From: a bacterium 336/3
GTDB taxonomy: Bacteria; Bacteroidota; Bacteroidia; Cytophagales; Thermonemataceae
Direction of reading: 5' to 3'
DNA length: 32,000 bases
NCBI GenBank assembly: GCA_001281695.1
Contig: LJIE01000001.1
Span: forward strand, 1,098,586-1,130,585
Below the pieces are notes generated by a model. That model did no database searches. It was given only the letters and a program-made list of their open reading frames with translations, and was not told the origin of the DNA. Position 1 is the first letter of the stretch; every line of letters starts with the position of its first letter. A program made the position numbers and the translations under genes. Shown here piece after piece: positions 6,625 through 31,245 of this stretch.

Positions 6625-6632
6625 TATCTTTG
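6625..6632 (+). promoter_or_regulatory. Candidate -7 box for the Endonuclease I gene (TATCTTTG)
   Basis: Exact TAnnTTTG match 22 nt upstream of the ATG at 6654. It overlaps the TTG used as the start in the ORF track, which argues against that upstream start. Confidence 0.55.
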
Positions 6633-6653
6633 CGACAAAAAAAAGATACCCTG

Positions 6654-9308: not shown

Positions 9309-9316
9309 AATTACTG

Positions 9317-9354
9317 AGCCTTGAAACCTAATTAATAAGTTTCAAGGCTTTGTT
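9317..9354 (+). terminator. Rho-independent terminator after the Endonuclease I gene
   Basis: AGCCTTGAAAC (9317-9327) pairs with GTTTCAAGGCT (9339-9349) and is followed by TTGTT. Confidence 0.6.
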
Positions 9355-9401
9355 ATGTGTTTTAATAACATACAATTAACAACTAATCCAAAAACATTTC
9401 A

Positions 9402-9409
9402 TAATTTTG
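9402..9409 (+). promoter_or_regulatory. Candidate -7 box (TAATTTTG) for the 1156-aa gene
   Basis: Exact TAnnTTTG match 41 nt upstream of the ATG at 9450. Confidence 0.5.
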
Positions 9410-9449
9410 CGAGCATTTTTACTTTAGTATTCAACAAACAAAGTTTTAT

Positions 9450-12400
9450 ATGAAACAAAAAAATTACACAAGTCTTATACTACTCCTTTGCTTATGGGTA
9501 TTAGGTGTAGGCAATGTGAAAGGACAAATACTTACAGAACAGTTTAATTATGGAGCAGTATCTGATAGTCTCAGCTTTATTTCTGGAACAGTATGGAATG
9601 GACATAGTTTAGGAGGAGCTTCTTTAACCAATCCAATTCAATATGTAGCTGGTTCAAATTTGAGTTTGGGTTCTTACCCTACCTTGGGAGGCAAAGTGAC
9701 TTTTACTACATCAGGGCAAGATATTAATAGTACATTGTCTTCTGCGGTTACATCTGGGACACTGTATTATTCTTTTTTGGTAAATATTACAAGTGCACAG
9801 ACAGCAGGAGATTATTTTATTCATACAGGACCAAGTCCAATAGGTAGTGGTTTTAATAATAGAGTTTTTGCTCGTTTAAGTGGTGGAAATTTACAATTTG
9901 GTATTCAAAAAACTAGTACAGGTCCTGCAACTTATGGAACAAATAACTATTCTACAGGTACAACTTATTTAATAGTTGTTAAATATCAGTTTAATACAGG
10001 AAGCACTACAGACGATGTATCTAGTCTATATGTATTTACTACTACAGCTCCTTTGACAGAACCTGGTGCAACAGAAGCAACAAATAGTGCAGGAACTGAC
10101 CCTACATCACTCCAAACCATAGCCATCAGACAGGGAACAGCTGCAAATGCTCCTGCTGGAGAAATAGATTATATACGTGTGGGTACAACTTGGGCAGATG
10201 TTACATCTGTACCTTCTGCTACACCTACTATCACTTTAGGTTCTACAAGTTTAACAGGTTTTACTACTACTGTGGGAACACCTTCAACAGCACAACAATA
10301 CGGAGTATCTGGTTCAAACCTTACAGGTTTTCCTAGTGATATAGTAGTGACAGCTCCCACAGGTTATGAAGTATCATTGACATCAGGCTCTGGATTTTCA
10401 GGTTCTGTGAATGTGGCTTATACAAGTGCAACACTTTCTAACACAACAATCTTTGTAAGAATAGCAGCGAGTGCAAGTGTTGGTTCACCCAGTGGAAATA
10501 TTACCAATGCAGGTGGTGGAGCAACTACCCAAAATGTAGCTGTAAGTGGTACTGTAAATGCTCCTCCAGCTACACTCACAGTGAACCCTACAAGTTTGAG
10601 TGGTTTTACAACAGTAACAGGCACAGCATCAACTGAACAATCTTATACTTTGAGTGGCACAGATTTAACAGGTTTCCCAGCTAATATTACAGTAACAGCA
10701 CCCACAGGTTATGAAGTATCATTGACATCAGGTTCTGGTTTTGCGGGTTCTGTGAATGTGGCTTATGCAAGTGCAACACTCTCTAACACAACAATTTTTG
10801 TAAGAATAGCAGCGAGTGCATCAGTAGGCTCTCCTAGTGGAAATATCACCAATGCAGGTGGTGGAGCAACCACTCAAAATGTTGCTGTAAGTGGAAATGT
10901 AAACCCATTAACTCCTACATTGAATGTAAATCCAACATCTCTTTCAGGCTTTACAACAATTACAGGCACAGCATCAGCAGAGCAATCTTATACCTTAAGT
11001 GGAACAAACTTAACAGGCTTCCCTGATAACATACTAGTTACAGCCCCTACGGGTTATGAAGTATCATTGACATCAGGCTCTGGATTTGGAGGTTCTGTGA
11101 ATGTGGCTTACACCAGTGCAACACTTTCTAATACAACTATTTTTGTAAGAATAGCAGCGAGTGCAAGTGTTGGCTCACCTAGTGGAAATGTTACCAATGC
11201 AGGTGGTGGAGCAACTACCCAAAATGTAGCTGTAAGTGGTACTGTAAATCCTGTTCCTACACCAACATTAACAGTAAATCCAACAAGTTTAAGTGGCTTT
11301 ACCACAACAGCAGGTACAGCATCAGCTAATCAATCATATACATTGAGTGGAGTTAATTTAACAGGTTTTCCTAGTAATATAGTAGTGACAGCACCCACAG
11401 GTTATGAAGTATCATTGACATCAGGTTCTGGATTTGGAGGTTCTGTGAATGTGGCTTACACCAGTGCAACACTTTCTAACACAACAATCTTTGTAAGAAT
11501 AGCAGCTAGTGCAAGTGTTGGTTCACCAAGTGGAAATGTTACCAATGCAGGTGGTGGAGCAACTACCCAAAATGTAGCAGTAAGTGGTACTGTAAATGCA
11601 GCACCTACAGTAGTACCTATTGCAAATATTCGTAATGCGATAGATGGAAGTGGAGCACAAGTCGCTCCTTATGCTGCTGGTACAGCAGTCATGATACAAG
11701 GACAAATTTATGGTGTAAATAGAAATATTGATGCAACTGTAGCCAATGGTACAAAGCAAAAATTTGAATTCACAGTGATAGATAATAGTACAGGTAGAAA
11801 TGGTATTGTGATACGTTCAACAGGAACAGTGGATATTGCCCCTGTTGATATGTTGGAAGGAGATAACATCACAGTATCAGGAACAGTGAGTCAATTTAAT
11901 GGTTTAACTCAAATTACAGCTACTTCTGTAACAAGAAATAGCACAGGTAACACTCGTAAAACACCTGTGAGTGCTACTGTAATTGCAGAAAATGAAGAAT
12001 CTCAATTGATTAGACTTACAGGGGTTACAGTAACGGCTTGGCCTACACTTCCTCATACAGGTTCGGGTGTGAATGCAACTATTACTGTGGGTGCAAATAC
12101 TTATACGCTTCGTATTACATCTGCAAGTGAACTATTTAATAAATCAGTAACAGACGTTTTTGGTACTGGAGCAACTCTGCCTGTAAATAATGTAACTATG
12201 GTTGGTTTAGGAGGTCAGTTTGATAATGCTTCTCCTTTTGATTCTGGTTATCAGTTATTTGTAACGAAACTTTCTGATGTAACCATTCCACCTCCAATTA
12301 TTCCTGCAATTAGTACAAATGCACCCAGCACAGGTTTAGATTTCGGAAATGTTGCTAAAAATACTGTTTCAACATCTCAAACTTATAAACTGATAGGTAA

Positions 12401-12920
12401 AGATTTGCCTACTACAGGTTCTAATTTGAATGTAGTTGTAAATGTTCCTAATAATTTTCAAGTATCTAAAAATAATACAGATTTCTTCTCTACAATTTCT
12501 TTTACAAATGCAGAAGTAAATAATGCAGGAACCACAGGTTTGGATGTATATGTTCGTTTTGCACCAGTATCTGACATTGATGGAGCCAAAGGTGGAGATG
12601 TAACACACTCTGTACCTTCAATTGTTCCTACTCTTAATGCGAATGTTGCTGTAAAAGGTGTACAAACAGCACCATTGAGTATTGCAGATGAACTTGCAAG
12701 TCAAGTAAACATTTATCCTAATCCTACAAATGGAATGACTATTAAAATAGATGCTCCTCAAGATTTTGTAGTTGAAATGTTAGATATAACAGGTAGAAAA
12801 GTGGCTAATTTTAATAGTTCTGAGCCTAAATTATCAGATAATTTACCTAATGGATTGTATTTCTTGCAATTTAGCAATGGAACTACTAAGTTTGTAAAAC
12901 GTTTGGTTATACAAAAATAA
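9450..12920 (+). CDS. Large secreted T9SS-cargo protein with no recognisable catalytic domain
   Basis: Signal peptide MKQKNYTSLILLLCLWVLGVGNVKGQ. An N-terminal beta-sandwich-like region is followed by four tandem ~115-aa Ig-like repeats (see the repeat feature). A bipartite OB-like module at about 11611-12285 (VIDNSTGRNGIVIRS...EGDNITVSGTVSQFNGLTQI...LIRLTGVTV...GGQFDNASPFDSGYQLFVTKLSDV) parallels the N-terminal module of the next gene. A fifth, diverged Ig-like module follows. The CTD reads IYPNPTNGMTIKI...GLYFLQFSNGTTKFVKRLVIQK. I found no nuclease, peptidase or glycosidase motif. Confidence 0.8.
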   Translation: MKQKNYTSLILLLCLWVLGVGNVKGQILTEQFNYGAVSDSLSFISGTVWNGHSLGGASLTNPIQYVAGSNLSLGSYPTLGGKVTFTTSGQDINSTLSSAVTSGTLYYSFLVNITSAQTAGDYFIHTGPSPIGSGFNNRVFARLSGGNLQFGIQKTSTGPATYGTNNYSTGTTYLIVVKYQFNTGSTTDDVSSLYVFTTTAPLTEPGATEATNSAGTDPTSLQTIAIRQGTAANAPAGEIDYIRVGTTWADVTSVPSATPTITLGSTSLTGFTTTVGTPSTAQQYGVSGSNLTGFPSDIVVTAPTGYEVSLTSGSGFSGSVNVAYTSATLSNTTIFVRIAASASVGSPSGNITNAGGGATTQNVAVSGTVNAPPATLTVNPTSLSGFTTVTGTASTEQSYTLSGTDLTGFPANITVTAPTGYEVSLTSGSGFAGSVNVAYASATLSNTTIFVRIAASASVGSPSGNITNAGGGATTQNVAVSGNVNPLTPTLNVNPTSLSGFTTITGTASAEQSYTLSGTNLTGFPDNILVTAPTGYEVSLTSGSGFGGSVNVAYTSATLSNTTIFVRIAASASVGSPSGNVTNAGGGATTQNVAVSGTVNPVPTPTLTVNPTSLSGFTTTAGTASANQSYTLSGVNLTGFPSNIVVTAPTGYEVSLTSGSGFGGSVNVAYTSATLSNTTIFVRIAASASVGSPSGNVTNAGGGATTQNVAVSGTVNAAPTVVPIANIRNAIDGSGAQVAPYAAGTAVMIQGQIYGVNRNIDATVANGTKQKFEFTVIDNSTGRNGIVIRSTGTVDIAPVDMLEGDNITVSGTVSQFNGLTQITATSVTRNSTGNTRKTPVSATVIAENEESQLIRLTGVTVTAWPTLPHTGSGVNATITVGANTYTLRITSASELFNKSVTDVFGTGATLPVNNVTMVGLGGQFDNASPFDSGYQLFVTKLSDVTIPPPIIPAISTNAPSTGLDFGNVAKNTVSTSQTYKLIGKDLPTTGSNLNVVVNVPNNFQVSKNNTDFFSTISFTNAEVNNAGTTGLDVYVRFAPVSDIDGAKGGDVTHSVPSIVPTLNANVAVKGVQTAPLSIADELASQVNIYPNPTNGMTIKIDAPQDFVVEMLDITGRKVANFNSSEPKLSDNLPNGLYFLQFSNGTTKFVKRLVIQK
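10227..11610 (+). repeat. Four in-frame tandem coding repeats, period 345/345/348 bp
   Basis: The identical 26-mer GGTTATGAAGTATCATTGACATCAGG recurs at 10362, 10707, 11052 and 11400. The translated units are about 115 aa each and highly similar. Confidence 0.92.
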
Positions 12921-12927
12921 AAAATAC

Positions 12928-12962
12928 ATAAGTCTTGGGAATATTCATTTCCCAAGACTTAT
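12928..12962 (+). terminator. Hairpin (possible terminator or attenuator) between the repeat-protein and PLD-nuclease genes
   Basis: ATAAGTCTTGGGA (12928-12940) pairs perfectly with TCCCAAGACTTAT (12950-12962). The trailing T tract (TTCAT) is weak, so read-through is plausible. Confidence 0.5.
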
Positions 12963-12985
12963 TTCATAAAGCAAACAAATCTAAT

Positions 12986-15382
12986 ATGAAAAAAATATAC
13001 TTTTTTGTATTCTTTCTTGTGATAGGAAAGGCTTTCGCTCAAGTAGAGCCAATAGGAACAGCAAGAGTGAAATCGAATGGTAGTGTGGTTACAGTAACTG
13101 GAATAGTTACTAATGATGCTGCTCATGATAACCGTAATAGGAACCGTTGTTTCCAAGATGCTACGGGTGGTTTAAATATTTTTGCTCAAAACTCTGCCAC
13201 TGCACCAACATTACAATCTCTTAAACCTGGTGATAGTGTTGTTGTAACAGGGACACTTGCAGAATTTAATAATTTGAAGCAACTAGTAGAGCCACTTACA
13301 ATAACAAGAGTTGCAGAAAATAAAACAGTGCCTAAAGCAAGAGTTGTAACTATTGCTGAATTACAGAATCCCGCAGTAGCAGAACTTCTTGAAAGTATGT
13401 TGGTTAGAGTAGAAGATGTTGTATTTGATACTGGAGATGCTATTTTTGGAAGTGGTACAGCAGGAAGAAGCTATGATTTTGACGACCCTAAAAGTCCTGT
13501 AAGTGGTAACTGTTTTCCAGTATCAGCAGATTGTAACAATGGTCCAATATACAGAATAAACCCAGGAAATCCTTTGGTTGGAACTGATATTCCTAAAGGA
13601 ACAGTTAGTTTATCAGGTTATTTAGGGCAATTTGCTGCTGCATACCAAATTACAGCAAGAGGAAGACAAGATTTAGAGTTAGGTTTAGTGATAGAAAATG
13701 TATTGCAAGAATCTATTAAACTAAATTCATTCAAATTAACCTTTACAACCAATCAAAAAGCGAAAACTCGTGTACGTTGGGGAAGTATTTTCCTAGTAGA
13801 TGTTAGTACAACCGACCCTACAAACTATGTAGCAAATTATGATACGACTTTTGTGGGTGAAACCAATATCACAGACCTAAATACAAATCATGAAATTAAT
13901 ATTACAGGTTTGAATGAAGCATCATTGTATTTTGTAGAGATTTTTTGTCAGAATGCTGAGGGGAATAAAAACACAATAGTTGGTGATGTATATGCAACGG
14001 CATCTCAATCAACAGGAGATATTAAAGTGTTTTTTAATAGAACTGTAGATGGATCTTTTTCTCGTAATGGTGCTGTACCATTTGTTACTACTGATATGGC
14101 TCAAGTAATAGCTGACTATATCAATAAAGCTCAAGTTTCTGTAGATGTTTCAATATACAATGCTAATACTGCTGGAGCTACTAAAATTGCAACAGCATTG
14201 AACAATGCTCAAACGAGAGGCGTACAAGTAAGATATATCTTTGGTGGCGAATCTGCGAATACAGCTAACACTTTGATACCTAATATTTTGAAAATGCGTG
14301 ATAGAAATACTGGTGGAGATGCTGCATTACAAAGAACAGGAACAGGTAATCATAATAAATTTGTTGTAATAGACCCTAATAGTACTCTTAACTCTTATGT
14401 GATAACAGGTTCTGGAAACTATACAGATAATAACTTATTTACAGACCCTAATAACTTTTTAGTCATTCAAGATCAAACATTGGCTCGTGCTTATAGAACA
14501 GAATTTGATGAAATGTGGGGAGAAGGACCTGTGAGTTTGGCAAACCCTGATCGTCAGAAAAAATCTCGTTTAGGAGCTCAAAAAATTAAAAATACACCTT
14601 CTAAATTTGTAATTGGTGATAGAGTAGTAGAACTGGCATTTTCACCTAGTGATAAAACTACCAATACTATCCGTAAAGCAATCTATAGTGCTGATAATGA
14701 TGTTCGTTTTGGATTACTTCTTATAACATCAGACGACTTACGTACACCTTTGGATTCTATGCAAAATGTAGGATGGGACGTAAAAGGTCTCATTGATGAT
14801 GAAAATGCTGTGGCTGAGACATCTCCATTGGTTCAAGGAAGTGATTTTGTTTGGTTAAGAGATAAAGGTGTCAATGTAAATGCTTATGTAAGTTCTACAA
14901 GTCAGTTACACCACAAATATGTGGTAATAGATGCAGTCCGTACTAATTCTGATCCTCAAGTAGTTACGGGTTCTCATAACTGGTCTTCAGGAGCTGAAAC
15001 ATCAAATGATGAGAATACTCTTATCATTCATGATGCTAAAATTGCCAATATGTATCGCCAAGAGTTTGGGCAACGTTGGTTTGAAGCAACAGGAATTAGA
15101 GATGCTTATGTATTGGCTTTAGACGAACCCACAAACGAAAAAGGTGCTGTTATCTATCCAAACCCATCACAAGGTGTATTCAAAATCCAATTTGATAGAG
15201 TTGTAAATTCAGAAATTCATGTGAAAGTTGTTGATTTACAAGGTAAGACCATAGAAAATCAAATAATAAATATGGATAGCTCACAATTTGAAATGGAAAC
15301 TAATCTACCAAAAGGTATGTATGTTTTACAAATTCGTGTAGGCGAAAAGACATTTACTCGTAAAATGGTGGTTACCAAATAA
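12986..15382 (+). CDS. Secreted PLD-superfamily (two-HKD, Nuc-like) nuclease with N-terminal OB-like module, FN3-like domain and T9SS type-A CTD (798 aa)
   Basis: Signal peptide MKKIYFFVFFLVIGKAFAQ. The OB-like module reads VVTVTGIVTNDA...CFQDATGGLNIFAQ...PGDSVVVTGTLAEFNNLKQL...LVRVEDVVF...GYLGQFAAAYQITARGRQDLE. HKD motif 1 is GNHNKFVVID...TGSGNYT (His codon at 14351). HKD motif 2 is LHHKYVVID...TGSHNWSSGAETSNDENTLIIHD (His codon at 14909). The CTD reads IYPNPSQGVFKIQF...GMYVLQIRVGEKTFTRKMVVTK. The track's TTG start at 12935 lies inside the upstream hairpin, so I prefer the ATG at 12986. Confidence 0.85.
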   Translation: MKKIYFFVFFLVIGKAFAQVEPIGTARVKSNGSVVTVTGIVTNDAAHDNRNRNRCFQDATGGLNIFAQNSATAPTLQSLKPGDSVVVTGTLAEFNNLKQLVEPLTITRVAENKTVPKARVVTIAELQNPAVAELLESMLVRVEDVVFDTGDAIFGSGTAGRSYDFDDPKSPVSGNCFPVSADCNNGPIYRINPGNPLVGTDIPKGTVSLSGYLGQFAAAYQITARGRQDLELGLVIENVLQESIKLNSFKLTFTTNQKAKTRVRWGSIFLVDVSTTDPTNYVANYDTTFVGETNITDLNTNHEINITGLNEASLYFVEIFCQNAEGNKNTIVGDVYATASQSTGDIKVFFNRTVDGSFSRNGAVPFVTTDMAQVIADYINKAQVSVDVSIYNANTAGATKIATALNNAQTRGVQVRYIFGGESANTANTLIPNILKMRDRNTGGDAALQRTGTGNHNKFVVIDPNSTLNSYVITGSGNYTDNNLFTDPNNFLVIQDQTLARAYRTEFDEMWGEGPVSLANPDRQKKSRLGAQKIKNTPSKFVIGDRVVELAFSPSDKTTNTIRKAIYSADNDVRFGLLLITSDDLRTPLDSMQNVGWDVKGLIDDENAVAETSPLVQGSDFVWLRDKGVNVNAYVSSTSQLHHKYVVIDAVRTNSDPQVVTGSHNWSSGAETSNDENTLIIHDAKIANMYRQEFGQRWFEATGIRDAYVLALDEPTNEKGAVIYPNPSQGVFKIQFDRVVNSEIHVKVVDLQGKTIENQIINMDSSQFEMETNLPKGMYVLQIRVGEKTFTRKMVVTK

Positions 15383-21471: not shown

Positions 21472-24400
21472 ATGTCTGCTCTCATCAAAAATCTGAAATT
21501 ATATCATTTACAGTTTTTGTTGGGAGCAATCTTTTTTACTCTTCTTGCTTGGGTTGCCATAAATTTCCATCAAAAAAAGCCATTAATCGCTGTTAATGAA
21601 AAATATAGATCTGTTATACAACGAAATATTTTAGAAGAAATCAAGATTTTAGAGCAAGAAGGTAGAGAAGTAGAGCAGTTCTTCCAAGAAGGGAATGCTA
21701 TCAGTTTGGTAGAACTCAAAAGGAAACATGTATATCCCTGTGTAGTTTTTAACAACGAAAAACTCGTTTTTTGGTCTGATTTTAGATTTATTCCTGAGTA
21801 TAATTTGATAGCAGGCAAATACGAAATTCAATTTTTGGAACTCAAAAATGGAATGTATTTGATACATAGGCAATATTTTAAAACGGCTGAAAGTAATAGT
21901 ATTGAAATATATACATATCTGCCTATCTTCAGTCGGTTCAATATTGAAAATACATATTTACAAGCTGCTTATAATCAGGAGATAGTTCCTTCAGAAAAAA
22001 TAACCATTAGTAGCAAGCCCTCCAAAACAAATATATTTTCTAATAAAGGTAATCTTCTATTTTCTCTACCTTATAACTCAAATAAAGAAGTAGATAGCTC
22101 AGAATGGTTTTTGTTGAGTCTATTTTCAGGAATATTTGCAGCAGGTTTTCTATTTATATTTTTGTGGAAATGGCGTTTGTACTTCCTTCAAAAACGTTTG
22201 TATGAGGTTAGTTGGTTAAGTTTTTTAGGTTTTTTTCTCCTTTTAAGGTGGGTAATGCTTTATAACCAAATTCCATTTGGTTTTTTTGAATGGGAGCTAT
22301 TTAACCCAAAATTATATGCTTCTTCTTTTTGGTCGCCTTCGTTGGGAGATTTAGCCCTTAACTTAGTTTGTATATTTTGGTTGCTTTATCAAATACAGAA
22401 TTATTATCCTCGTACATTTTTATTTCAGAAAACACGAACCATCAACAAAATAGCGATATTTATCATTGCCACTATTTTGATACTGTTGAGTTATATTGTC
22501 TTTTATAAGATATTCTGGATATTCAGTTCTATTTTTACGGATTCTCAGTTGGTTTTAGATATTTCTCAAAACATTAGTTTTTCCTCAGCTCATTGGTTGG
22601 CATATTTGGTGTTTGTGATGTTATCTGTTATTTATTTCTTTTCTAACCATTTGATAGGCAGAATTTTAATTAAAGTAATCGATAATCGCTATATTTTGTT
22701 TATTACTTCTTTTGGATTAACAACTTTAGTGCATATTCTTTGGATATATGCCAACAAAGAATTCCATCCACTACTGAGCTTTATTAATGGCGTTTATATT
22801 TTACTTTTATATTATTTTGCTTTTCCTAAATTTTTATATCAGTTTAAATATTCATCTACACTTTATTTATTTTTAGCGAGTTTATTTTGTGCCATTTCTG
22901 GAGTATATGCCATGATTTACTTTGGGGGTAGAACTCAAGATGTACAAATGCGGAAATATGCAGAAAACCTTTTGGAAGAACGAGATTTTTCTGCTGAATA
23001 TAGTTTGGATAATATCAGTGATGATATTCGTTTAGATGCTGGAATCAAAGAATATTTAAGAAGTCCATTTTTAGAAAAATCCTTGATTAGAAAGAAAATT
23101 CAAAAGACATACTTGAAAAACGATTTTCCTGACTATCAAGTAAATATATATACATTTGATGCATTTGGGTATTCTTTGCAACCCCAAACCAATAATCAAA
23201 CCTATCAAGAATGGGTAAGTACATACCAGAAAAAAGAATTTGGAATAGATAGAACAGATATATTTTTTATTAACGAAACGCAAGCTATTGAGCAAAAAGT
23301 AGATATCAATTTACTCAGAATGTATCTGGATTTTGTGGAAATTAAGAGAGATACTAATATGTTGGGTTATGTGATTTTAGAGTTGAAAAAGAAAAAAAAT
23401 GAGCCTTTTAAAGTATATCCTGAACTTTTACAGAATGAGCGATTTAAAGAACCAGAGGAATTCAAGAATTTTTCGTATGCAATTTATAATGATGAAAAGC
23501 TTATTTATGCTTATGGAAACTTTAATTTTGAAAAAGCTTTTAAGAAGAGTTTGTTTAATATAAAAGCTTTATACAATGAGGGTTATGTGCATCAAGGTTT
23601 TAAACACTTGAGTGTGAAGGGAGAAAAAGGTCGTACGATTGTGGTTTCTATACCTGTCTATGCATTTAAAAATGTTTTTGCGAATTTTTCTTTTTTATTT
23701 TTATTACTTGTCCTTATTGTTACACAGGTTTTATTATTCTATGGTTTAACCAATTATACAAAGAAAATAAAAATAACTTTTACAACTCGTATTCAACTAT
23801 TTCTGAATACAGCATTTTTCCTGCCATTGGCAGTTGTTAGTATTACTACATTGAGCATTATTAGCTCTTCTTATGACAAAGACCTAAATAATTCTTTTGT
23901 TCAGAAGGCTGAAAATGCGACAAGAAGCCTTGTCAATATTGTTCAACAATACAAAAAAGAACTAATAGAAAAAGATGAGTTACTGAAAGATATTGAAGCC
24001 ATAGCTGGTTACGCTCAATCTGATATAAACCTTTTTGATGTATCAGGAAGGCTCATTGCCTCCAGCCAGTCTGGTATTTATGATAATGAATTGATTTCCA
24101 AGTATATTAATCCAGAAGTTTTATGGAAAATTGTTGAACAAAAGGAACAAAGTGTGATGCTTTTAGAATCTGTGGGTTCTTTAGGGTATAAATCGGTATA
24201 TTTAGCGATACGTTCTTACGAAGACAATCAGTTGCTTGCAATATTGAGTATTCCATTTTTCGATGCAGAGGATGAAAGACAACGAAAAATTGCAGTGGTT
24301 TTGACAACTATCATCAATATTTTTACAATAGTTTTCATCATTTTTATTGTGATTTCATACTTTGCATCTAATATTTTGACAGAACCCCTGACACTGATTA

Positions 24401-25212
24401 CTCAAAAAATTAGAAAAACGACTCTTTATGCCTATAATGAGCCTTTGCAATGGGATTCGGATGATGAAATAGGGCTTATGATAAATGAGTACAACAAAAT
24501 GCTTGTGAAATTGGAGCAGAGTAAAGAGGCCTTGGCTCAAACCGAAAAAGAATCAGCTTGGCGAGAAATGGCAAAACAAGTAGCTCATGAAATCAAGAAC
24601 CCGCTAACGCCCATGAAGCTCACTTTGCAACACTTGCAAATGCGTATTGAAAGGGAAAATCCTGATTTACAAAAACTCACCTCAAAGCCTTTTGAAACAC
24701 TTTTGGCTCAGATAGATTTGTTGAGTGATATAGCTACCTCATTTTCTAATTTTGCGAAAATGACCACTCCGAAAAATGAAATTTTTGACGTTTCAGAAAC
24801 TTTAAGGCAAACACTCCAGCTCTACGAAAGTGATGAAAAAGTGCATTTGATACGTATTTTGGAAAAAGGTAAATTTCAGGTACAAGGAGATAAACAACTA
24901 ATGACACAGATTTTTACCAACATTATTTTAAATGCTATTCAGGCCGTACCTTCGGGTAAAGAGGCTGAAATAGGGGTGAGCTTGTACAGAGATGGCAGTT
25001 TTGTACATATCGAAATCAGAGATAATGGAGTGGGTATTCCTAAAGAAGTGCAAAATAAAGTATTCTTGCCTAATTTTAGTACCAAGTTTACAGGCTCAGG
25101 AATTGGGCTTGCCCTAGCAAAACGTGGTATTGAGCATGTTGGAGGGAAAATTTGGTTTGAAACCAAAGAAAATGAAGGAACTTGTTTCTTTATAGAACTA
25201 CCTTTGGTATAA
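21472..25212 (+). CDS. Orphan sensor histidine kinase (NtrY-like transmitter) with a very large multi-TM sensor region (1246 aa)
   Basis: The H-box is QVAHEIKNPLTPMKLTLQHL (His codon 24586-24588), with an upstream HAMP-like segment. The HATPase_c motifs are NAIQAV (N box), IRDNGVGIP and GSGIGLALAKRGIEHVGGKIWFE. The preceding ~950 aa hold more than 10 hydrophobic helices and two soluble blocks. No response regulator is present in the window. Confidence 0.88.
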   Translation: MSALIKNLKLYHLQFLLGAIFFTLLAWVAINFHQKKPLIAVNEKYRSVIQRNILEEIKILEQEGREVEQFFQEGNAISLVELKRKHVYPCVVFNNEKLVFWSDFRFIPEYNLIAGKYEIQFLELKNGMYLIHRQYFKTAESNSIEIYTYLPIFSRFNIENTYLQAAYNQEIVPSEKITISSKPSKTNIFSNKGNLLFSLPYNSNKEVDSSEWFLLSLFSGIFAAGFLFIFLWKWRLYFLQKRLYEVSWLSFLGFFLLLRWVMLYNQIPFGFFEWELFNPKLYASSFWSPSLGDLALNLVCIFWLLYQIQNYYPRTFLFQKTRTINKIAIFIIATILILLSYIVFYKIFWIFSSIFTDSQLVLDISQNISFSSAHWLAYLVFVMLSVIYFFSNHLIGRILIKVIDNRYILFITSFGLTTLVHILWIYANKEFHPLLSFINGVYILLLYYFAFPKFLYQFKYSSTLYLFLASLFCAISGVYAMIYFGGRTQDVQMRKYAENLLEERDFSAEYSLDNISDDIRLDAGIKEYLRSPFLEKSLIRKKIQKTYLKNDFPDYQVNIYTFDAFGYSLQPQTNNQTYQEWVSTYQKKEFGIDRTDIFFINETQAIEQKVDINLLRMYLDFVEIKRDTNMLGYVILELKKKKNEPFKVYPELLQNERFKEPEEFKNFSYAIYNDEKLIYAYGNFNFEKAFKKSLFNIKALYNEGYVHQGFKHLSVKGEKGRTIVVSIPVYAFKNVFANFSFLFLLLVLIVTQVLLFYGLTNYTKKIKITFTTRIQLFLNTAFFLPLAVVSITTLSIISSSYDKDLNNSFVQKAENATRSLVNIVQQYKKELIEKDELLKDIEAIAGYAQSDINLFDVSGRLIASSQSGIYDNELISKYINPEVLWKIVEQKEQSVMLLESVGSLGYKSVYLAIRSYEDNQLLAILSIPFFDAEDERQRKIAVVLTTIINIFTIVFIIFIVISYFASNILTEPLTLITQKIRKTTLYAYNEPLQWDSDDEIGLMINEYNKMLVKLEQSKEALAQTEKESAWREMAKQVAHEIKNPLTPMKLTLQHLQMRIERENPDLQKLTSKPFETLLAQIDLLSDIATSFSNFAKMTTPKNEIFDVSETLRQTLQLYESDEKVHLIRILEKGKFQVQGDKQLMTQIFTNIILNAIQAVPSGKEAEIGVSLYRDGSFVHIEIRDNGVGIPKEVQNKVFLPNFSTKFTGSGIGLALAKRGIEHVGGKIWFETKENEGTCFFIELPLV

Positions 25213-25248: not shown

Positions 25249-28200
25249 TTAATGTATACTTTTTTCATTGTTTTCTTCTGAGATATCTATAAACCTCAGC
25301 TTTGGGTCTAATATGATACGAGTAGGCTTTTTGGATAGCTCAAGACTCGTTTTGAGTTGATGAGGCTCTAAAGTAAAATACTCGTTTGTTCCATCTTGAA
25401 AATTAATTTGTATTTCAATAGGTTCATTAAAAGGCATATTTTGACGAGAGCCATCAATATTTTCTATATATTTTTTTGCTTCCGTTTCAAAAGAAAGTAA
25501 ATATTTTTTGTCTTTTTGAATAGCTGAAACAAATTGAATACTTAAATCGTAAGTAGTGATGGTTTTAAAAAGCTCGTCTATTTTAGCATGAATAGATGTA
25601 TTAGAAATAGTTTTTAACTCTTCTATAAGATTCAAAGTAGTGGGTGGTTCATGAGGAAAGGCATGTTTTTCTAAAAGGCTTTTTAATGCTAGATTCATGT
25701 TTTTTTCACCAATTAGTTTGTACAATTGATACATCACTATCATGCCTTTATCATAACATAAAAATACTCTGTTAGGATGTGATGTGTAAAGTGGTTCATC
25801 ACCTCCTAAACCTCTGTCGCCTAAATAAATATCTTTATGGATATTCACTCTATTGATAAGTCTTTCTTCTCCATATGTTTGTTTATAGAGCATCAATTCA
25901 GTGTACATAGCCAATGTTTCTGTAAGAATTTTACTGCCTTGCTGGCGTGGTGGGCTTATTTGGGAATTTCCCCACCAAGTATGTGAAAGCTCATGGCTTA
26001 CAAGTTCATTGATAATATCCTTATCGGGATTAGCTTCAATTTTACTTTGTAAACCAAAATTTTCAGGAATAAAAAAACTATTAGGATATGCTGTACCTGC
26101 AAAACCTTGTACAAAAGAAGAAATTTCTATAAAACGAATACTTTTGAAGGGATATTTACCAAAATTTGCTTCACAATAATCCAATGTTTGAGTAGCTATT
26201 TTAAGTAAATAATCGATATTTTGATAATGACTTGGATGATAATAAGCCTCAATGGCAATGCCATGATACATTGTTTTTTTAAGCTGATAAGAAGCAGAAG
26301 CCACAGCAAATCGGAAAGGAGTAGGTGATGTTGTTTTATATTTGAAATAATTTCGGTCATTCTTTTGCCAAGATTCTACAAACTCCCCAACTCCAATAGC
26401 TGTCTGATTTTTAGAAGTAGAAATAATAGTTTCAAGATTGATAAACTCATAATCAAAAGGACTTTGAGACGGATTTTCTAATGGCATTAAAGGTGTAGTA
26501 GAAGGCAGTTTACGATATTTTCTTTCTTGTAAATTTGTAATTTCATTATCTGCCTGATAACCCAAACGTGGAAAATAATTGCTAATACGCATAAAAGAGC
26601 CATTTTCTAAAATAGAATTGAAAGAAGTATGTCCTGTAAAAGCAGACCAACCGTATTCAAATGTAAAATGCATTTTTAAGGAATCGTTTGGAGCTAAGGG
26701 AGTGAAAAGTGTATAAAATTCATGTCCAAACTTATTATCTTTTTTAGCTATTTTTCCTTTTTCAATAGAAACGGACTTCCACTGAATACTTTTATCTAAA
26801 TACACCAAAATTTCTTTGAGAGGAGTATTTTGTTTATTGACAAGTATGTATGTACCTGAAACTTGATAACGATTTTGCTCTGGAAATAAATTTATTTGAG
26901 TTTTAACATCTGTGATGGTTGGCAAACGCATTTTTTCATATTTTCTGTACTCTAATTCGTATGCTTGTTTCCAATCATTTATTTCTTGAGTTGTTTGAAG
27001 ATGAGTTTCTTTAGCAATAAAAATGCCTATTGTAGCAGTGCTTAAAACAAACATAAACAGACATAAATATCCAAATCTTGATTTTTTTAAGGATTTTAAA
27101 GGGAAAAATAAATACCAAAGTAAACAAACACTTATCATAAAAAGAACCCCAAAAAGCATTTTTACATGAAAAGCATCAAGATAAGCCCCAAATCCTGTCA
27201 TATCGCTATATTTACCTTGTAATGATTTTGTAAACTTCAATAATGGATGTTTAAGACCAATTATTTTTCCGATATTGGTATTCATGAGTGCATGTATAAA
27301 AAAGCCTATTACAAGGGCTACATATTTACTTTTAAATAATTTTTGCAGTAAAATAATAATTGATGAAAACAAAGTAAGTGGTAAACCAATCACATAAAAA
27401 AGAGAAAAATATAATCCCCAATTGAATATGAAATGTTTGAATGCAATCTGGAAAAATAGACACAGAAAAATATTAAATACAATTAGAACAAACCCAATCA
27501 GCACTAAGACAGCCCATTTTGCAATAGTTATAGAAAATTTAGAAATAGGTGTGGAAATTTCAATATCTTGAAATCGAAAGGTTTTACTCTTCCAGAAAAT
27601 TTCACTTCCATAAAATAAAAGTAAAATAACGGCTATATCTGGGAATGTATCAAGAATTTCATTGACAAGTAAATGTGTAGTTGCAAATTGTTCTGGCATT
27701 CTTGAGCTACCATTTAAACCACTAAAAATCTCAATACTTATAAAAATGAGCCAGCCTGATATAAATAAAACAAAAGGAAGACTTTTAAGAATACTGAAAA
27801 AATCTATTTTGATAATACTTAAAATGCTTTGTAAAGCATATCGAATAGAAGATATACGTGTTGAAATTGGTGTGTAAACCAAAGATAGTGTATTGATTTC
27901 TTTGGTGAGCTTTTGATTGTTTTTTTGTTTTTTATGATAAATAGTGAAGTTTGATTTTTTATATGTGAACCATATAAGTCCAAGAGATACAAGTAAATAC
28001 AATACCCTATTGATGAGAAAATTTCCTTCTAAAACTAAAACCTGCGAATTTCGATTTTGTGCTGACCAATACCTTGTTTGTTCCAAAAATGCAGAGACCC
28101 CAAAAGGGTCAAGTTTTGCAGAAAGACTCATAGCTTCTGCTGAAACAGGCTGATTGCCTGCAACCAAAGGTGAATTGGTAAAAATAGCAATTCCCCAATA

Positions 28201-28752
28201 CAAGAAATATAAAAAAAGCCCTGCTATGTAAATAATCATTTTGTTTTTGGAAATAGCTCCCAAGCAACCCATAACTGCCAAACAAAATAGAATATTGGGA
28301 ATAACAATCACCAAAAAAGGCTGAATGTAGTACCAAAAGTCAAAATTTCCGTAAATGTGTGTGGCTTTGCGTAAGAACTGATGCCCAAACATGATTCCTA
28401 CCACAAATAATAAAAAATGTAAAAAACTAATTTGAAAAATAGTCATCAAACGACTGGTAAGATAATGTTGCTTTTTTAAAGGTGTGGCATACAAAATCAA
28501 ATCAAAATGATAATCTTTTTCTCTAAATAAACTTTGTGCAGCCAAAATAGCTACTACAAAAATACTTGTCAGAGAAAATAAACCTAATAGATATGTGAGT
28601 ACAAAAGGTGAGTTTTTATTTGTATTTGCCCAAGGGAAATTTGCAAATGAGGCAACCATGATACCTAAGCCAAAAAATAGAGCAAGAGAAACATACAAAG
28701 CCTTTTTCTTACTGAAAAAAAGCCAATCAAATAACAAAATATCTTTAAGCAT
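25249..28752 (-). CDS. Fusion protein: ABC-2-type permease-like membrane region (~13 TM) plus C-terminal M1-family zinc metallopeptidase domain (1167 aa)
   Basis: The first ~620 aa form two blocks of hydrophobic helices. The C-terminal ~550 aa carry the gluzincin site HELSH (25981-25995, minus strand) and a third-ligand helix KILTETLAMY aligned to the canonical M1 WLNEGFASY. I chose the start at ATG 28752 (MLKDILLFDW...), which overlaps the upstream ABC ATPase stop by 8 nt (ATGCTTAA). The ATG at 28788 remains possible. Confidence 0.85.
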   Translation of the reverse strand: MLKDILLFDWLFFSKKKALYVSLALFFGLGIMVASFANFPWANTNKNSPFVLTYLLGLFSLTSIFVVAILAAQSLFREKDYHFDLILYATPLKKQHYLTSRLMTIFQISFLHFLLFVVGIMFGHQFLRKATHIYGNFDFWYYIQPFLVIVIPNILFCLAVMGCLGAISKNKMIIYIAGLFLYFLYWGIAIFTNSPLVAGNQPVSAEAMSLSAKLDPFGVSAFLEQTRYWSAQNRNSQVLVLEGNFLINRVLYLLVSLGLIWFTYKKSNFTIYHKKQKNNQKLTKEINTLSLVYTPISTRISSIRYALQSILSIIKIDFFSILKSLPFVLFISGWLIFISIEIFSGLNGSSRMPEQFATTHLLVNEILDTFPDIAVILLLFYGSEIFWKSKTFRFQDIEISTPISKFSITIAKWAVLVLIGFVLIVFNIFLCLFFQIAFKHFIFNWGLYFSLFYVIGLPLTLFSSIIILLQKLFKSKYVALVIGFFIHALMNTNIGKIIGLKHPLLKFTKSLQGKYSDMTGFGAYLDAFHVKMLFGVLFMISVCLLWYLFFPLKSLKKSRFGYLCLFMFVLSTATIGIFIAKETHLQTTQEINDWKQAYELEYRKYEKMRLPTITDVKTQINLFPEQNRYQVSGTYILVNKQNTPLKEILVYLDKSIQWKSVSIEKGKIAKKDNKFGHEFYTLFTPLAPNDSLKMHFTFEYGWSAFTGHTSFNSILENGSFMRISNYFPRLGYQADNEITNLQERKYRKLPSTTPLMPLENPSQSPFDYEFINLETIISTSKNQTAIGVGEFVESWQKNDRNYFKYKTTSPTPFRFAVASASYQLKKTMYHGIAIEAYYHPSHYQNIDYLLKIATQTLDYCEANFGKYPFKSIRFIEISSFVQGFAGTAYPNSFFIPENFGLQSKIEANPDKDIINELVSHELSHTWWGNSQISPPRQQGSKILTETLAMYTELMLYKQTYGEERLINRVNIHKDIYLGDRGLGGDEPLYTSHPNRVFLCYDKGMIVMYQLYKLIGEKNMNLALKSLLEKHAFPHEPPTTLNLIEELKTISNTSIHAKIDELFKTITTYDLSIQFVSAIQKDKKYLLSFETEAKKYIENIDGSRQNMPFNEPIEIQINFQDGTNEYFTLEPHQLKTSLELSKKPTRIILDPKLRFIDISEENNEKSIH

Positions 28753-29629
28753 ATTGTTTAGTATGAAGGAGTTGAGAAAAATAAACATCTTCTAAATCGG
28801 GATATTTAGGAACAAATCCATTATTTGGATTGCTTTCTGAATAAATATGAATTTTCAGTTTGCCAGAATGGAGTTGTGAAGAAATTACCTGATAGTTTTG
28901 TTCATAAATAGGGCGTTCTTTTTTATCAATTTGTTTTTCCCAAATACAATTTTCGAGTTTTTCAATGAAATACTGGGGTTTTCCACAGACTTGTACAACC
29001 CCTTTGTGGATAATAGCCATCTGTGAACACAAATTCTTCACATCTTCTACAATGTGTGTGGATAAGATGACGATTACTTGTTCGCCAATTTCACTTAAAA
29101 GATTATTGAAACGATTTCTTTCTTCAGGGTCTAAGCCTGCTGTAGGCTCATCTACAATAATAATTTGAGGATTTCCCAAAAGAGCTTGAGCAATACCAAA
29201 TCTTTGACGCATACCACCAGAAAAAGTACTTACAGCTTTGTTTCGGTGTTCATACAAATTGGTTTTTTCAAGAAGAGCTAAAATTTGGTTTTTTCTTTCA
29301 GAAATAGATGCTATGCCTTTTAAAATGGCTAAATGTTCAAGTAAATAAAAAGCTGAAATATTGGGATATACCCCAAAATCTTGGGGTAAATATCCCAAAT
29401 GTTGCTTGATATAGAGAGGGTTTTCTATAATATTGACACTATTAAACAAAATTTCGCCTGTATCAGGTATTTGTAAACCAGCAATAGTTCGCATTAGCGT
29501 AGATTTTCCTGCACCATTTGCTCCTAAAAGCCCAAACATACCATTTTGTATTTCTAAAGAAATATCTTGCATGGCTTTTACTCCATTTGAGTAAGTTTTA
29601 GAGATGTTTTTGATTTCTAGTTGATTCAT
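28745..29629 (-). CDS. ABC transporter ATP-binding protein
   Basis: Walker A GANGAGKST, Q-loop LPQD, signature FSGGMRQR, Walker B IIIVDEPTAGLD and H-loop STH. A ~80-aa C-terminal extension is typical of ABC-2 partner ATPases. Confidence 0.92.
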   Translation of the reverse strand: MNQLEIKNISKTYSNGVKAMQDISLEIQNGMFGLLGANGAGKSTLMRTIAGLQIPDTGEILFNSVNIIENPLYIKQHLGYLPQDFGVYPNISAFYLLEHLAILKGIASISERKNQILALLEKTNLYEHRNKAVSTFSGGMRQRFGIAQALLGNPQIIIVDEPTAGLDPEERNRFNNLLSEIGEQVIVILSTHIVEDVKNLCSQMAIIHKGVVQVCGKPQYFIEKLENCIWEKQIDKKERPIYEQNYQVISSQLHSGKLKIHIYSESNPNNGFVPKYPDLEDVYFSQLLHTKQYA

Positions 29630-29719
29630 GAAAAACAGTTTTTAGTTAAGACAATGGACTTCTAATCACCCATTTTTGGGTGTTTTTATATATAAAAATG
29701 AATAAGATGTGTAGCTCTT

Positions 29720-29926
29720 TTAGTCGGGCTTGTACTCTAAAATATCACCTGGCTGGCAATCAAGGGCTTTACAAATAGCCTCTAGAGTGTCAAAACGAAT
29801 ACCTTTTGCTTTACCAGTTTTTAAAATAGACAAATTGGCTGGGGTAATTTCAAGTATTTCTGCCAATTCTTTTGATTGCATTTTACGTTTGGCAAGCATC
29901 ACATCTACATTAACTATAATTGGCAT
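29720..29926 (-). CDS. Small XRE/Cro-type helix-turn-helix transcriptional regulator (YozG-like, 68 aa)
   Basis: MLAKRKMQSKELAEILEITPANLSILKTGKAKGIRFDTLEAICKALDCQPGDILEY is the characteristic YozG-type HTH sequence. Confidence 0.85.
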   Translation of the reverse strand: MPIIVNVDVMLAKRKMQSKELAEILEITPANLSILKTGKAKGIRFDTLEAICKALDCQPGDILEYKPD

Positions 29927-29928
29927 GG

Positions 29929-30444
29929 TTATATAAATAAGTCTTGTTCTTTTTGAAGATTTAAACCTTGTCTAAAAATAGTAGCTAAGAAATAAGCAAA
30001 TATACCTAATACAAAGTGTAATAAAATGAGTATTTCCGTTGGATCTTCTACTTTTGTAAAGATACTTGTAATAAGAGCTGTAAGGCTTGGGAGTATCAAA
30101 TTTCCCAAATAAAACCATTTGAGCTGTTTTACACCATACTCTGTAAAAAGTTTTGGCTGAAAAAACACTTTAAAAACATTGCTTACAAGCAAGAAAAACA
30201 GTCCATACAAACTAATAGGTACTAAAAAATAGAAAAAAATATACTCTGTATAATACTCTCCAAGTAAAAAAGGCTTGTTTGTAAAAGGAAAACATACCTG
30301 AAAATACTTGCCATTGTCCTTAATATTTAATGACCATTTGGTTGATAAGGCAATGACAGAATGTAAGGACATGGCAAAATAGAGAATTGCCAAAAACCTT
30401 GTGACATAGAATAAAATTTTAGAAATGATTTTGACTGAATTCAT
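29929..30444 (-). CDS. Small 4-TM membrane protein, DUF2975-like
   Basis: 171 aa with about four hydrophobic helices. Its stop lies 2 nt before the HTH start codon. A membrane protein paired with a YozG-like HTH is the recurrent DUF2975 context as I recall it. The assignment rests on context and topology, not on motifs. Confidence 0.55.
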   Translation of the reverse strand: MNSVKIISKILFYVTRFLAILYFAMSLHSVIALSTKWSLNIKDNGKYFQVCFPFTNKPFLLGEYYTEYIFFYFLVPISLYGLFFLLVSNVFKVFFQPKLFTEYGVKQLKWFYLGNLILPSLTALITSIFTKVEDPTEILILLHFVLGIFAYFLATIFRQGLNLQKEQDLFI

Positions 30445-30470: not shown

Positions 30471-30478
30471 CAAAAGTA
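30471..30478 (-). promoter_or_regulatory. Candidate -7 box (TACTTTTG on the minus strand) for the DUF2975/HTH/ABC gene run
   Basis: Plus-strand CAAAAGTA is the reverse complement of TAnnTTTG, 27 nt upstream of the ATG at 30444. Confidence 0.45.
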
Positions 30479-30581
30479 ATAGTAATTATTGTAAAACAAT
30501 AATTATTTATCAAAATATTTAATTGTGGTTGTCTCGGAAATCAAATATTTAAAAATATTCTTAGAAATTCATTTTGAATTT

Positions 30582-30624: not shown

Positions 30625-31245
30625 ATGGGAACTGCTGAAAGAAAAGCTAAAGAGAAAGAAGAGTTGAAGCACCTTATTTTAGAGGGAGCAAAGAAGCTCT
30701 TTGCTGAAAGGGGCATAGAGCATACAACTATTAGAAATATTGCCAACGAAATCAATTATAGTGTAGGGACAGTATATGTTTATTATAAAGATAAAAACGA
30801 TATACTTCACGCTTTACACATGCAAGGTTTTTCAATGCTTGGTTCTCGTTTTAAAGTGCTTTTTTCTGTTGAAAATCCTATGGAACGCCTGAAGGCTATG
30901 GGCAAAGAATACATTCGTTTTGCTTTGGAAAGCCCTGAAATGTACGATTTGATGTTCAACCTCAGAGCCCCTATCGAGTTTTTGGATGCTATGCAATCTG
31001 ATGAATGGAATGAAGGCAGAGCAACATTTTTTATATTAAAAAATACAGTAATGGCTTGTATGGAACAAGGGCATTTTAAAGGTTTACAAGATGCAGAGGC
31101 TATTTCTTTTATGATTTGGAGTACAGTACATGGTATGTGTAGCCTTGAAATCAGAGGAAGGTGCAAAGGGGTAGCTTTTGAAAATCCTGAAACAATTGTA
31201 GAAAGAGGCTATGCCATCATGCTAAAAATGATTGATAGTATCTAA
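30625..31245 (+). CDS. TetR/AcrR-family transcriptional regulator
   Basis: The N-terminal HTH is ILEGAKKLFAERGIEHTTIRNIANEINYSVGTVYVYYKDKNDIL. It is 206 aa with an all-helical C-terminal ligand domain. Confidence 0.9.
   Translation: MGTAERKAKEKEELKHLILEGAKKLFAERGIEHTTIRNIANEINYSVGTVYVYYKDKNDILHALHMQGFSMLGSRFKVLFSVENPMERLKAMGKEYIRFALESPEMYDLMFNLRAPIEFLDAMQSDEWNEGRATFFILKNTVMACMEQGHFKGLQDAEAISFMIWSTVHGMCSLEIRGRCKGVAFENPETIVERGYAIMLKMIDSI

Follow-up and report, generated by a model that had tools for sequence, protein, structure and literature searches.

A permease–peptidase fusion protein and its ABC ATPase in bacterium 336/3: a possible export-coupled peptide-processing machine

We describe a pair of adjacent genes in a 32,000-nucleotide (nt) stretch of the genome of bacterium 336/3 (Bacteroidota, Cytophagales, Thermonemataceae; assembly GCA_001281695.1, contig LJIE01000001.1, positions 1,098,586–1,130,585 of the forward strand; this whole stretch is referred to as the window). 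The first gene encodes an ATP-binding cassette (ABC) ATPase, and the second a large protein in which an ABC permease is fused to an M1-type zinc peptidase domain. Our tentative reading, to which we give slightly less than an even chance, is that the two proteins form an export-coupled degradation or processing machine: a type V exporter with a tethered periplasmic M1 peptidase, encoded by an inducible operon. A first-pass annotation, made from the DNA letters alone, had suggested either an ATP-powered extracytoplasmic peptidase or an exporter coupled to substrate processing, an idea that we regard as plausible. The fusion gene is a member of a catalogued but unstudied family, not a new kind of system. 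The two genes are arranged as follows:

25249–28752, minus strand: fusion gene, 1167 amino acids (aa), counted from the ATG within ATGCTTAA.
28745–29629, minus strand: ABC ATPase gene, 294 aa.
28745–28752, minus strand: ATGCTTAA, where the ATPase stop codon and the fusion start codon overlap.

The ATPase open reading frame (ORF) ends in TAA, and its overlap with the fusion gene, together with the tight coupling of the two genes, had been pointed out in the first pass; both are borne out. A second in-frame ATG lies upstream of the fusion start, at position 28788, and was used by a mechanical ORF list. Homologues of the fusion protein begin MLKD..., and an identical database protein is 1167 aa long, so the start is likely to be 28752. 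In essentially every related locus for which upstream sequence is available, the ATPase gene lies directly upstream of the fusion gene; the two genes are separated by no more than 30 nt in 21 of 29 loci, and overlap in eight. That an assembly or frameshift artefact has joined two separate genes is ruled out, bar a negligible chance, by the same end-to-end architecture in independent genomes of many phyla and by the identical, same-length database protein. The fusion is genuine, as the first reading of the sequence had supposed.

Indeed, the permease–peptidase fusion is real, old and widespread. A genome scan returned at least 437 encoding loci, and the 80 of these that were listed come from Bacteroidota, Acidobacteriota, Pseudomonadota, Planctomycetota, Gemmatimonadota, Ignavibacteria, Calditrichia and others. 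Exhaustive searching with HMMER yielded 1233 cluster representatives (50% identity) at E ≤1e-30; of the best 150 among these 1233, nearly all are 1050–1250 aa long and align end to end, and distant full-length relatives of 1190–1200 aa occur in many phyla. A survey of phyletic distribution, recommended in the first pass, thus finds the fusion in many phyla. The family has been in the TCDB database since 2013, as entry 3.A.1.145: Myxococcus xanthus Q1D520, 1200 aa, with 13 transmembrane (TM) helices and an ABC-2 plus Peptidase M1 composition, for which the function given was only a guess (PMC3924187). Family members carry the NCBI name "ABC transporter permease/M1 family aminopeptidase". Full-text literature searches returned this cataloguing paper and no functional, structural or genetic study of the family, in agreement with the initial remark that such fusions are named by annotation pipelines yet uncharacterised. 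Split or partial versions were also seen: in Chryseobacterium proteolyticum (locus L040, 3863–7031) the fusion gene appears as two ORFs of 599 and 342 aa, and the protein library contains a 599-aa permease-only protein and a 528-aa peptidase-only protein (P0260, P0223). These could be fragments, pseudogenes or natural splits.

Hydropathy analysis of the fusion protein gives 6 + 7 hydrophobic helices. An AlphaFold2 model of the full-length chain, built on 63 homologues (predicted local distance difference test score, pLDDT, 88.5; predicted template modelling score, pTM, 0.84), arranges these as two units, each consisting of one amphipathic helix and six TM helices, followed by TM13 (residues 559–582) and a further helix at residues 588–605. 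The first-pass count of about 13 helices in two blocks is therefore upheld. The membrane half contains the following predicted parts:

27955–28752, minus strand: first ABC-2 membrane domain, residues 1–266, with connecting helix 2–14 and TM1–6 (AlphaFold2, Foldseek, NosY profile match).
27106–27846, minus strand: second ABC-2 membrane domain, residues 303–549, with connecting helix 303–322 and TM7–12 (AlphaFold2, Foldseek, PmtD profile match).
27007–27078, minus strand: TM13, residues 559–582, taking the chain from the cytoplasm to the periplasm (hydropathy and AlphaFold2).

Two kinds of evidence bear on the class of this transporter. Firstly, type V ABC transporters are recognized by short, non-swapped six-TM domains, a connecting helix before TM1 and TM7, a coupling helix between TM2 and TM3 and between TM8 and TM9, and external helices between the last two TM helices (PMC11406275). 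In the predicted models, the corresponding helices occur in the expected order: connecting helices at 2–14 and 303–322, coupling helices at 77–89 and 395–400, and external helices at 205–236. Secondly, structure and profile comparisons place the membrane half nearest to ABC-2 transporters. Its best Foldseek match is Rv1217c (577–600 columns, TMq 0.5), followed by NosY, PmtD and ABCG2, all at E-values of 0.015 or worse; a profile of the membrane half, searched against the PDB, matches NosY over residues 4–124 and PmtD over residues 305–483 (E about 1e-3). The model compared by Foldseek was a separate AlphaFold2 model of residues 1–600, with a pLDDT of 86.7. The Pfam model ABC2_membrane_3 scores 18.9 bits on the fusion protein, below its cut-off of 31.6, and many homologues carry precomputed matches to PF12698, PF12730 or PF12679 (ABC2_membrane). 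The agreement of several weak lines, together with the ordered type V helices of the models, leads us to conclude that the permease is, on its predicted structure, a tandem type V (ABC-2) exporter.

The first-pass annotation had likened the system to type VII ABC systems (FtsEX, MacB, LolCDE), and this likening fails. With Rv1217c, NosY, PmtD and ABCG2 as the best structural matches, no MacB, FtsX or LolC was found among the top 50 Foldseek matches of the membrane half, and a Pfam scan of the fusion protein gave no FtsX or MacB match. It fails on the ATPase too, for which GldA, DrrA, lantibiotic-protection and NodI come top among the NCBIfam models, each scoring under its equivalog cut-off. 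The ATPase (Pfam ABC_tran, PF00005, 101.5 bits) consists of a nucleotide-binding domain and a C-terminal extension of ~70 aa; it belongs to the ABC-2 (DrrA/GldA/NodI-like) subgroup, and its motifs are intact: Walker A GANGAGKST (36), signature SGGMRQR (137), Walker B IIIVDEPT (156) and H-loop STH (~190). Pfam, NCBIfam and Foldseek evidence together rule out type VII kinship.

The side of the membrane on which the peptidase lies was assessed in two ways. The positive-inside rule had been used in the first pass to place the N-terminus in the cytoplasm and the peptidase outside it, and the charge bias is consistent across the family: mean lysine plus arginine (K+R) in the loops is 29.0 on the N-terminal side versus 9.4 on the alternate side, with the same sign in all 63 homologues; the loop before TM13 is strongly basic (mean K+R 4.5 in ~16 residues). 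The type V fold leads to the same conclusion. In type V transporters it is the connecting and coupling helices that touch the cytoplasmic ATPase, and the six-helix domains each end in the cytoplasm (PMC11406275); TM13 must therefore cross outward. With the N-terminus inside and 13 helices, the peptidase comes to lie outside the cytoplasm. Charge bias and fold thus agree independently, and the predicted topology—cytoplasmic N-terminus, periplasmic M1 domain—is supported. A conceptual precedent for the opposite arrangement is provided by the peptidase-containing ABC transporters (PCATs), in which a C39 domain processes the substrate before export. Beyond that precedent there is nothing to recommend a cytoplasmic peptidase in the present case; the positive-inside bias in all 63 sequences, and the outward crossing of TM13 after two type V domains that end in the cytoplasm, make it very improbable.

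Conservation within the membrane half was measured by counting positions at ≥90% conservation. There are 21 of these, about 19 of which lie in periplasmic loops or at periplasmic helix ends: Asn47, Gly119, Tyr142, Ala212, Asp215-Pro216-Phe217-Gly218, Trp229, Asn235, Asn248, Arg249, Gln435, Tyr448, Leu504, Gly520, Tyr598, Glu599 and Pro611. Only Phe8 and Pro91 are cytoplasmic. Taken with the pTM of the full chain, this distribution suggests that (i) the transporter has its functional site on the periplasmic, or outer-leaflet, face, and (ii) this face works together with the peptidase. The pTM of 0.84 for a chain of 1167 aa also hints that, in the model, the peptidase packs against the membrane part in a defined way.

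The same conservation pattern could be read in another way, as mechanotransmission without transport: ATP hydrolysis would do no more than open and close the periplasmic peptidase, so that the proteolysis of a periplasmic or envelope substrate would be ATP-switched, much as FtsEX switches hydrolase activators and NosDFY performs work in the periplasm. In the membrane half, conservation is highest on the periplasmic face and in the helix after TM13, with Tyr598 and Glu599, and NosY—an ABC-2 permease that works with a partner in the periplasm—ranks among the top structural and profile matches. Against this stands the nature of two other matches, Rv1217c (structurally the closest) and PmtD, which are true exporters with outer-leaflet cavities. 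We consider mechanotransmission rather unlikely; it is nevertheless the main rival to transport-coupled cleavage, and the present data do not separate the two.

The C-terminal part of the fusion protein comprises the following:

26218–26919, minus strand: M1 domain I, beta-rich, residues 612–845 (AlphaFold2, Foldseek).
25564–26217, minus strand: thermolysin-like catalytic domain (helical), residues 846–1063 (Pfam, alignments, AlphaFold2).
26080–26106, minus strand: GFAGTAYPN, residues 883–891, at the GAMEN position.
25981–25995, minus strand: HELSH, residues 920–924, the zinc motif.
25918–25920, minus strand: Glu945 in KILTETLAMY, third zinc ligand.
25753–25755, minus strand: Tyr1000 (CYDKG), catalytic Tyr.
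25249–25563, minus strand: C-terminal beta-sandwich (M1 domain III), residues 1064–1167, plus the stop codon (AlphaFold2, with the sandwich itself at 1065–1165).

That this part is M1-like, as first proposed, is clear from Pfam Peptidase_M1 (PF01433; 50.2 bits against a cut-off of 27.7, residues 849–1055) and from Foldseek, in which domains I–III match IRAP, E. coli PepN and ERAP (E about 1e-19, ~590 columns). In PepN, ERAP and IRAP, a helical domain IV caps and gates the active site. No such domain follows the beta-sandwich here: the model ends there, and an hhalign alignment stops at PepN residue 495. Since M1 proteins of ~474 aa (6A8Z, 6IFF), too short to hold a domain IV, also match the family profile, its absence alone does not exclude M1 membership. 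It does mean that something else may gate the peptidase, and in this respect a peptidase without the domain that gates other M1 enzymes is a further point in favour of mechanotransmission. The beta-sandwich (1064–1167) is the least conserved part of the fusion protein and is missing from a subgroup of ~1061-aa relatives (e.g., P0032, P0047 and P0067; L005, L006 and L009); it is therefore probably dispensable for the core function.

Active-site residues were identified from three alignments: phmmer against ERAP2, the family profile against ERAP2, and hhalign against PepN from the E. coli K-12 genome. All three agree that Glu945 is the third zinc ligand (PepN Glu320) and Tyr1000 the catalytic Tyr (PepN Tyr381 in VYEKG; SYNKG in ERAP2). 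Exactly 20 residues separate HELSH from Glu945, compared with 18 in PepN, so the unusual spacing noticed in the first pass is real. Among 63 aligned homologues, 24–79% identical to the window protein, 43 have a spacing of X20, 19 of X19 and one of X21; His920, Glu921, His924, Glu945 and Tyr1000 are invariant in all 63. A second sample, of 77 full-length ORFs from species-representative genomes, retains HEXXH-X19-21-E in every member, and the catalytic Tyr is also present. Having kept its zinc ligands, general-base Glu and transition-state Tyr, the M1 domain looks catalytically competent as judged from its sequence.

The motif GXMEN defines M1 exopeptidases, and its Glu binds the free N-terminus of the substrate. 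None of the three alignments places an acidic residue opposite this Glu, though the register of GFAGTAYPN differs among them, and the G.MEN pattern occurs in 0 of the 77 genomic relatives. In the close clade, the residues at the GAMEN position are GFA[GA]TAYP; in the distant clade they are xF-AQSF. The replacement of GAMEN had been read by eye in the first pass, with the advice to align against characterised M1 enzymes; the alignments and the pattern search over 77 relatives rule out a normal GAMEN that had been misplaced, and the alignment comparison finds the GAMEN equivalent lost and the catalytic Tyr kept. With the catalytic set retained and G.MEN absent family-wide, the domain looks like a working zinc hydrolase minus the hallmark of M1 exopeptidases. 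The loss of the GAMEN Glu and the lack of a capping domain IV make ordinary aminopeptidase action unlikely.

These observations bear on two further explanations. One is that the protein is an ordinary membrane-anchored aminopeptidase that trims periplasmic peptides for nutrition, uncoupled from the ABC cycle. The clear Pfam Peptidase_M1 match, the M1 fold and the NCBI family name ("M1 family aminopeptidase") are what would be expected in that case. The missing GXMEN in 77 of 77 relatives is not; moreover, the fusion and its adjoining ATPase gene have been kept across many phyla and 1233 clusters, which argues for coupling, and an anchor needs one helix, not 13. We judge the ordinary aminopeptidase improbable. 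The other explanation, nearly as improbable in our view, is that the M1 domain acts on a non-peptide bond, or only binds or caps its ligand—for example, a substrate that is N-acylated or attached to a lipid and is brought to it by the exporter. The M1 family offers a precedent in leukotriene A4 hydrolase, which opens a lipid epoxide by hydrolysis; type V exporters commonly handle lipids and hydrophobic molecules; and the Glu that recognizes a free amino group is absent family-wide. However, the invariant HEXXH, Glu and Tyr are expected of a working hydrolase, for which peptide-bond cleavage is the simplest activity.

The ATPase and fusion genes are the last two of a four-gene operon, whose upstream part is as follows:

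29929–30444, minus strand: DUF2975-like (YoaS-like) polytopic membrane protein, 171 aa, first operon gene.
29720–29926, minus strand: Cro/C1-type helix-turn-helix (HTH) protein (HTH_26, YozG-like), 68 aa, putative autorepressor.
30483–30505, minus strand: perfect 10-nt inverted repeat TAATTATTGT-N3-ACAATAATTA, putative operator.
30471–30478, minus strand: TACTTTTG, a match to the TAnnTTTG box, 26 nt before the first operon start codon.

The 171-aa protein scores 25.4 bits for DUF2975, just under the Pfam gathering score of 27, and the 68-aa protein 87.8 bits for HTH_26; the HTH_26 gene starts 2 nt past the stop of the DUF2975-like gene. A hairpin, CACCCA-N4-TGGGTG, with a 6 base pair, GC-containing stem, lies at 29667–29682 in the 90-nt gap between the HTH and ATPase genes, and scores as a terminator only on the plus strand, where no gene precedes it; on the operon strand it may serve as an attenuator or a processing site. 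The same order of genes (DUF2975-like, HTH_26, ATPase, fusion) is found in Flavobacterium johnsoniae, and also in 12 related loci whose sources are Flavobacterium, Emticicia, Terrimonas, Chryseobacterium, Muricauda and one Ignavibacteria genome. In those 12 loci the palindrome recurs nearly base-identical upstream of the DUF2975-like gene, across genera and including Ignavibacteria, and in related loci it is followed by a TAcATTTG or TATATTTG box.

Inverted repeats upstream of YoaS-YozG (DUF2975 + HTH) operons have been proposed as autoregulatory operators (bioRxiv 10.64898/2026.09.15.751765). The palindrome at 30483–30505 matches this class of operator; it is likely the operator of the present operon, and is most likely bound by the HTH_26 repressor. 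The consensus of the Bacteroidota -7 promoter box is TAnnTTTG, and TACTTTTG at 30471–30478 would be the corresponding promoter element. Elsewhere in the family, a LytS-type histidine kinase (PF06580) and a LytTR regulator stand beside the operon, mostly divergently, in six loci of different lineages (L007, L014, L015, L022, L038, L081), which suggests an alternative regulatory module. Both arrangements—operator plus DUF2975-like/HTH_26 pair, and LytS/LytTR—suggest induced rather than housekeeping expression, in response to a signal perceived at the membrane. A divergent TetR gene in the window (30625–31245, plus strand) is unlikely to regulate the operon, because it is absent from 81 of 81 related loci while the operator is conserved.

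Put together, the favoured export-coupled mechanism would run as follows. Two copies of the 294-aa ATPase and one permease chain, which supplies both membrane domains, would make up a single type V (ABC-2) machine. TM13 would return the chain across the membrane, placing the M1-type zinc peptidase in the periplasm, docked on the transporter. ATP binding and hydrolysis may then draw an amphipathic, peptide-like substrate from the membrane, or from its outer leaflet, by way of the conserved periplasmic face of the permease, and the tethered peptidase may receive it directly and cut it without need of a free N-terminus. The outcome would be export-coupled degradation or processing; candidate substrates are antimicrobial peptides, lipopeptides and membrane-trapped peptide remnants. 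In the clade of the window, the machine would be regulated as an inducible four-gene operon behind a conserved operator. A narrower proposal, which we think unlikely, is that a type V extractor pulls N-blocked or membrane-embedded peptides, such as lipopeptide or amphipathic antimicrobial peptides, from the outer leaflet into a tethered M1-fold endopeptidase that is independent of a free N-terminus. To our knowledge, no M1 enzyme has been characterised with endopeptidase activity of this kind.

Four points weigh against the export-coupled reading. In structure and in sequence, the membrane part matches solved transporters only weakly (Foldseek E ≥0.015; profile E 1e-3). GAMEN loss shows only that N-terminal recognition is altered, not what the enzyme cuts. 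Clustering of flanking ORFs from 81 loci revealed no peptide, bacteriocin or outer-membrane gene that recurs nearby. Finally, the literature searches gave no substrate, activity or phenotype for any family member. The idea offers three handles, nonetheless: a periplasmic peptidase with its catalytic residues, the loss of the aminopeptidase motif, and a transporter whose most conserved face is the one predicted to meet the peptidase. It is directly testable, because tractable hosts such as F. johnsoniae carry the same four-gene operon. Coupled transport and cleavage, if true, would give ABC exporters a novel route for disposing of or processing peptide-like molecules, and would broaden the chemistry known for the M1 family; the extractor–endopeptidase variant, if true, would be a new and widespread mechanism of immunity to peptide antibiotics. 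All of this concerns a large family, named in databases since 2013, for which we found no experiment in the literature.

The neighbourhood survey, also recommended in the first pass, finds few recurrent genes across the 81 loci: the ATPase gene in nearly every locus, the DUF2975-like/HTH pair in one clade, and, in a few loci, the LytS/LytTR pair or a PF00144 hydrolase. The last of these, a beta-lactamase/serine hydrolase gene, is found no more than 4 kb from the operon in six loci (L005, L008, L009, L015, L033, L060); its proximity may be chance, as such genes are abundant in these phyla. PADLOC returned nothing for the fusion protein and only generic matches for the ATPase, and thus gave no support for a role in anti-phage defence. 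In the window itself, a convergent gene for a 1246-aa histidine kinase (21472–25212, plus strand) ends 36 nt from the fusion stop; the kinase has a very long N-terminal part with many hydrophobic stretches, and is not conserved beside the operon in related loci. Further away, at 6630–15382 on the plus strand, lie three large genes in a row, all with a type IX secretion sorting domain (Por_Secre_tail) at their ends. Their products are an Endonuclease I + Calx-beta protein, an 1156-aa protein with no other Pfam match, and a PLD-like + DUF5689 protein; this looks like a cluster of secreted nucleases or phosphodiesterases.

Among transporters of known structure, Rv1217c-Rv1218c of M. tuberculosis (PDB 8K1M, 8K1N, 8K1O) is the best match. 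It likewise carries both membrane domains in one chain, has a separate ATPase with an extra C-terminal domain (a homodimer in that system), and has connecting, coupling and external helices. It differs in having 12 TM helices and no periplasmic enzyme domain, and is only 9–12% identical to the window permease. NosDFY (PDB 7O0Y, 7QBA) and PmtCD (PDB 6XJH) contain ABC-2 permeases that give the next best structural and profile matches; their permeases are separate six-TM chains with no fused hydrolase, and the profile E-value is about 1e-3. NosFY acts together with a partner domain in the periplasm, and PmtCD is an exporter of amphipathic peptides; within the ABC-2 fold, these two—one doing periplasmic work, the other peptide export—are better precedents than type VII. 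Type VII transporters have four TM helices per protomer and a large periplasmic domain between TM1 and TM2, whereas the fusion has 6 + 6 + 1 TM helices and its extracytoplasmic domain is C-terminal; what is shared is only the general idea of cytoplasmic ATP hydrolysis serving a periplasmic task.

The peptidase half resembles the M1 aminopeptidases (PepN, ERAP1/2, IRAP, APN) in its domain I, catalytic domain and beta-sandwich and in its HEXXH, Glu and Tyr, and departs from them in lacking the GXMEN Glu and domain IV, in its X19-21 rather than X18 spacing, and in its tether, a 13-TM transporter. The regulatory genes resemble YoaS-YozG in that a small HTH_26 protein adjoins a DUF2975-like membrane protein and an AT-rich inverted repeat precedes the pair; the difference is that the window pair is joined in one operon with an ABC ATPase and a permease–peptidase fusion. 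The architecture is that of TCDB 3.A.1.145, which shares the N-terminal ABC-2 permease, 13 TM helices, C-terminal Peptidase M1 and length of ~1200 aa (compared with the published description of Q1D520). Within this wider family, which includes a more distant subclade lacking the DUF2975-like/HTH_26 pair, the window protein belongs to a Bacteroidota subclade marked by the X20 spacing, GFA[GA]TAYP and the DUF2975-like/HTH_26 pair upstream.

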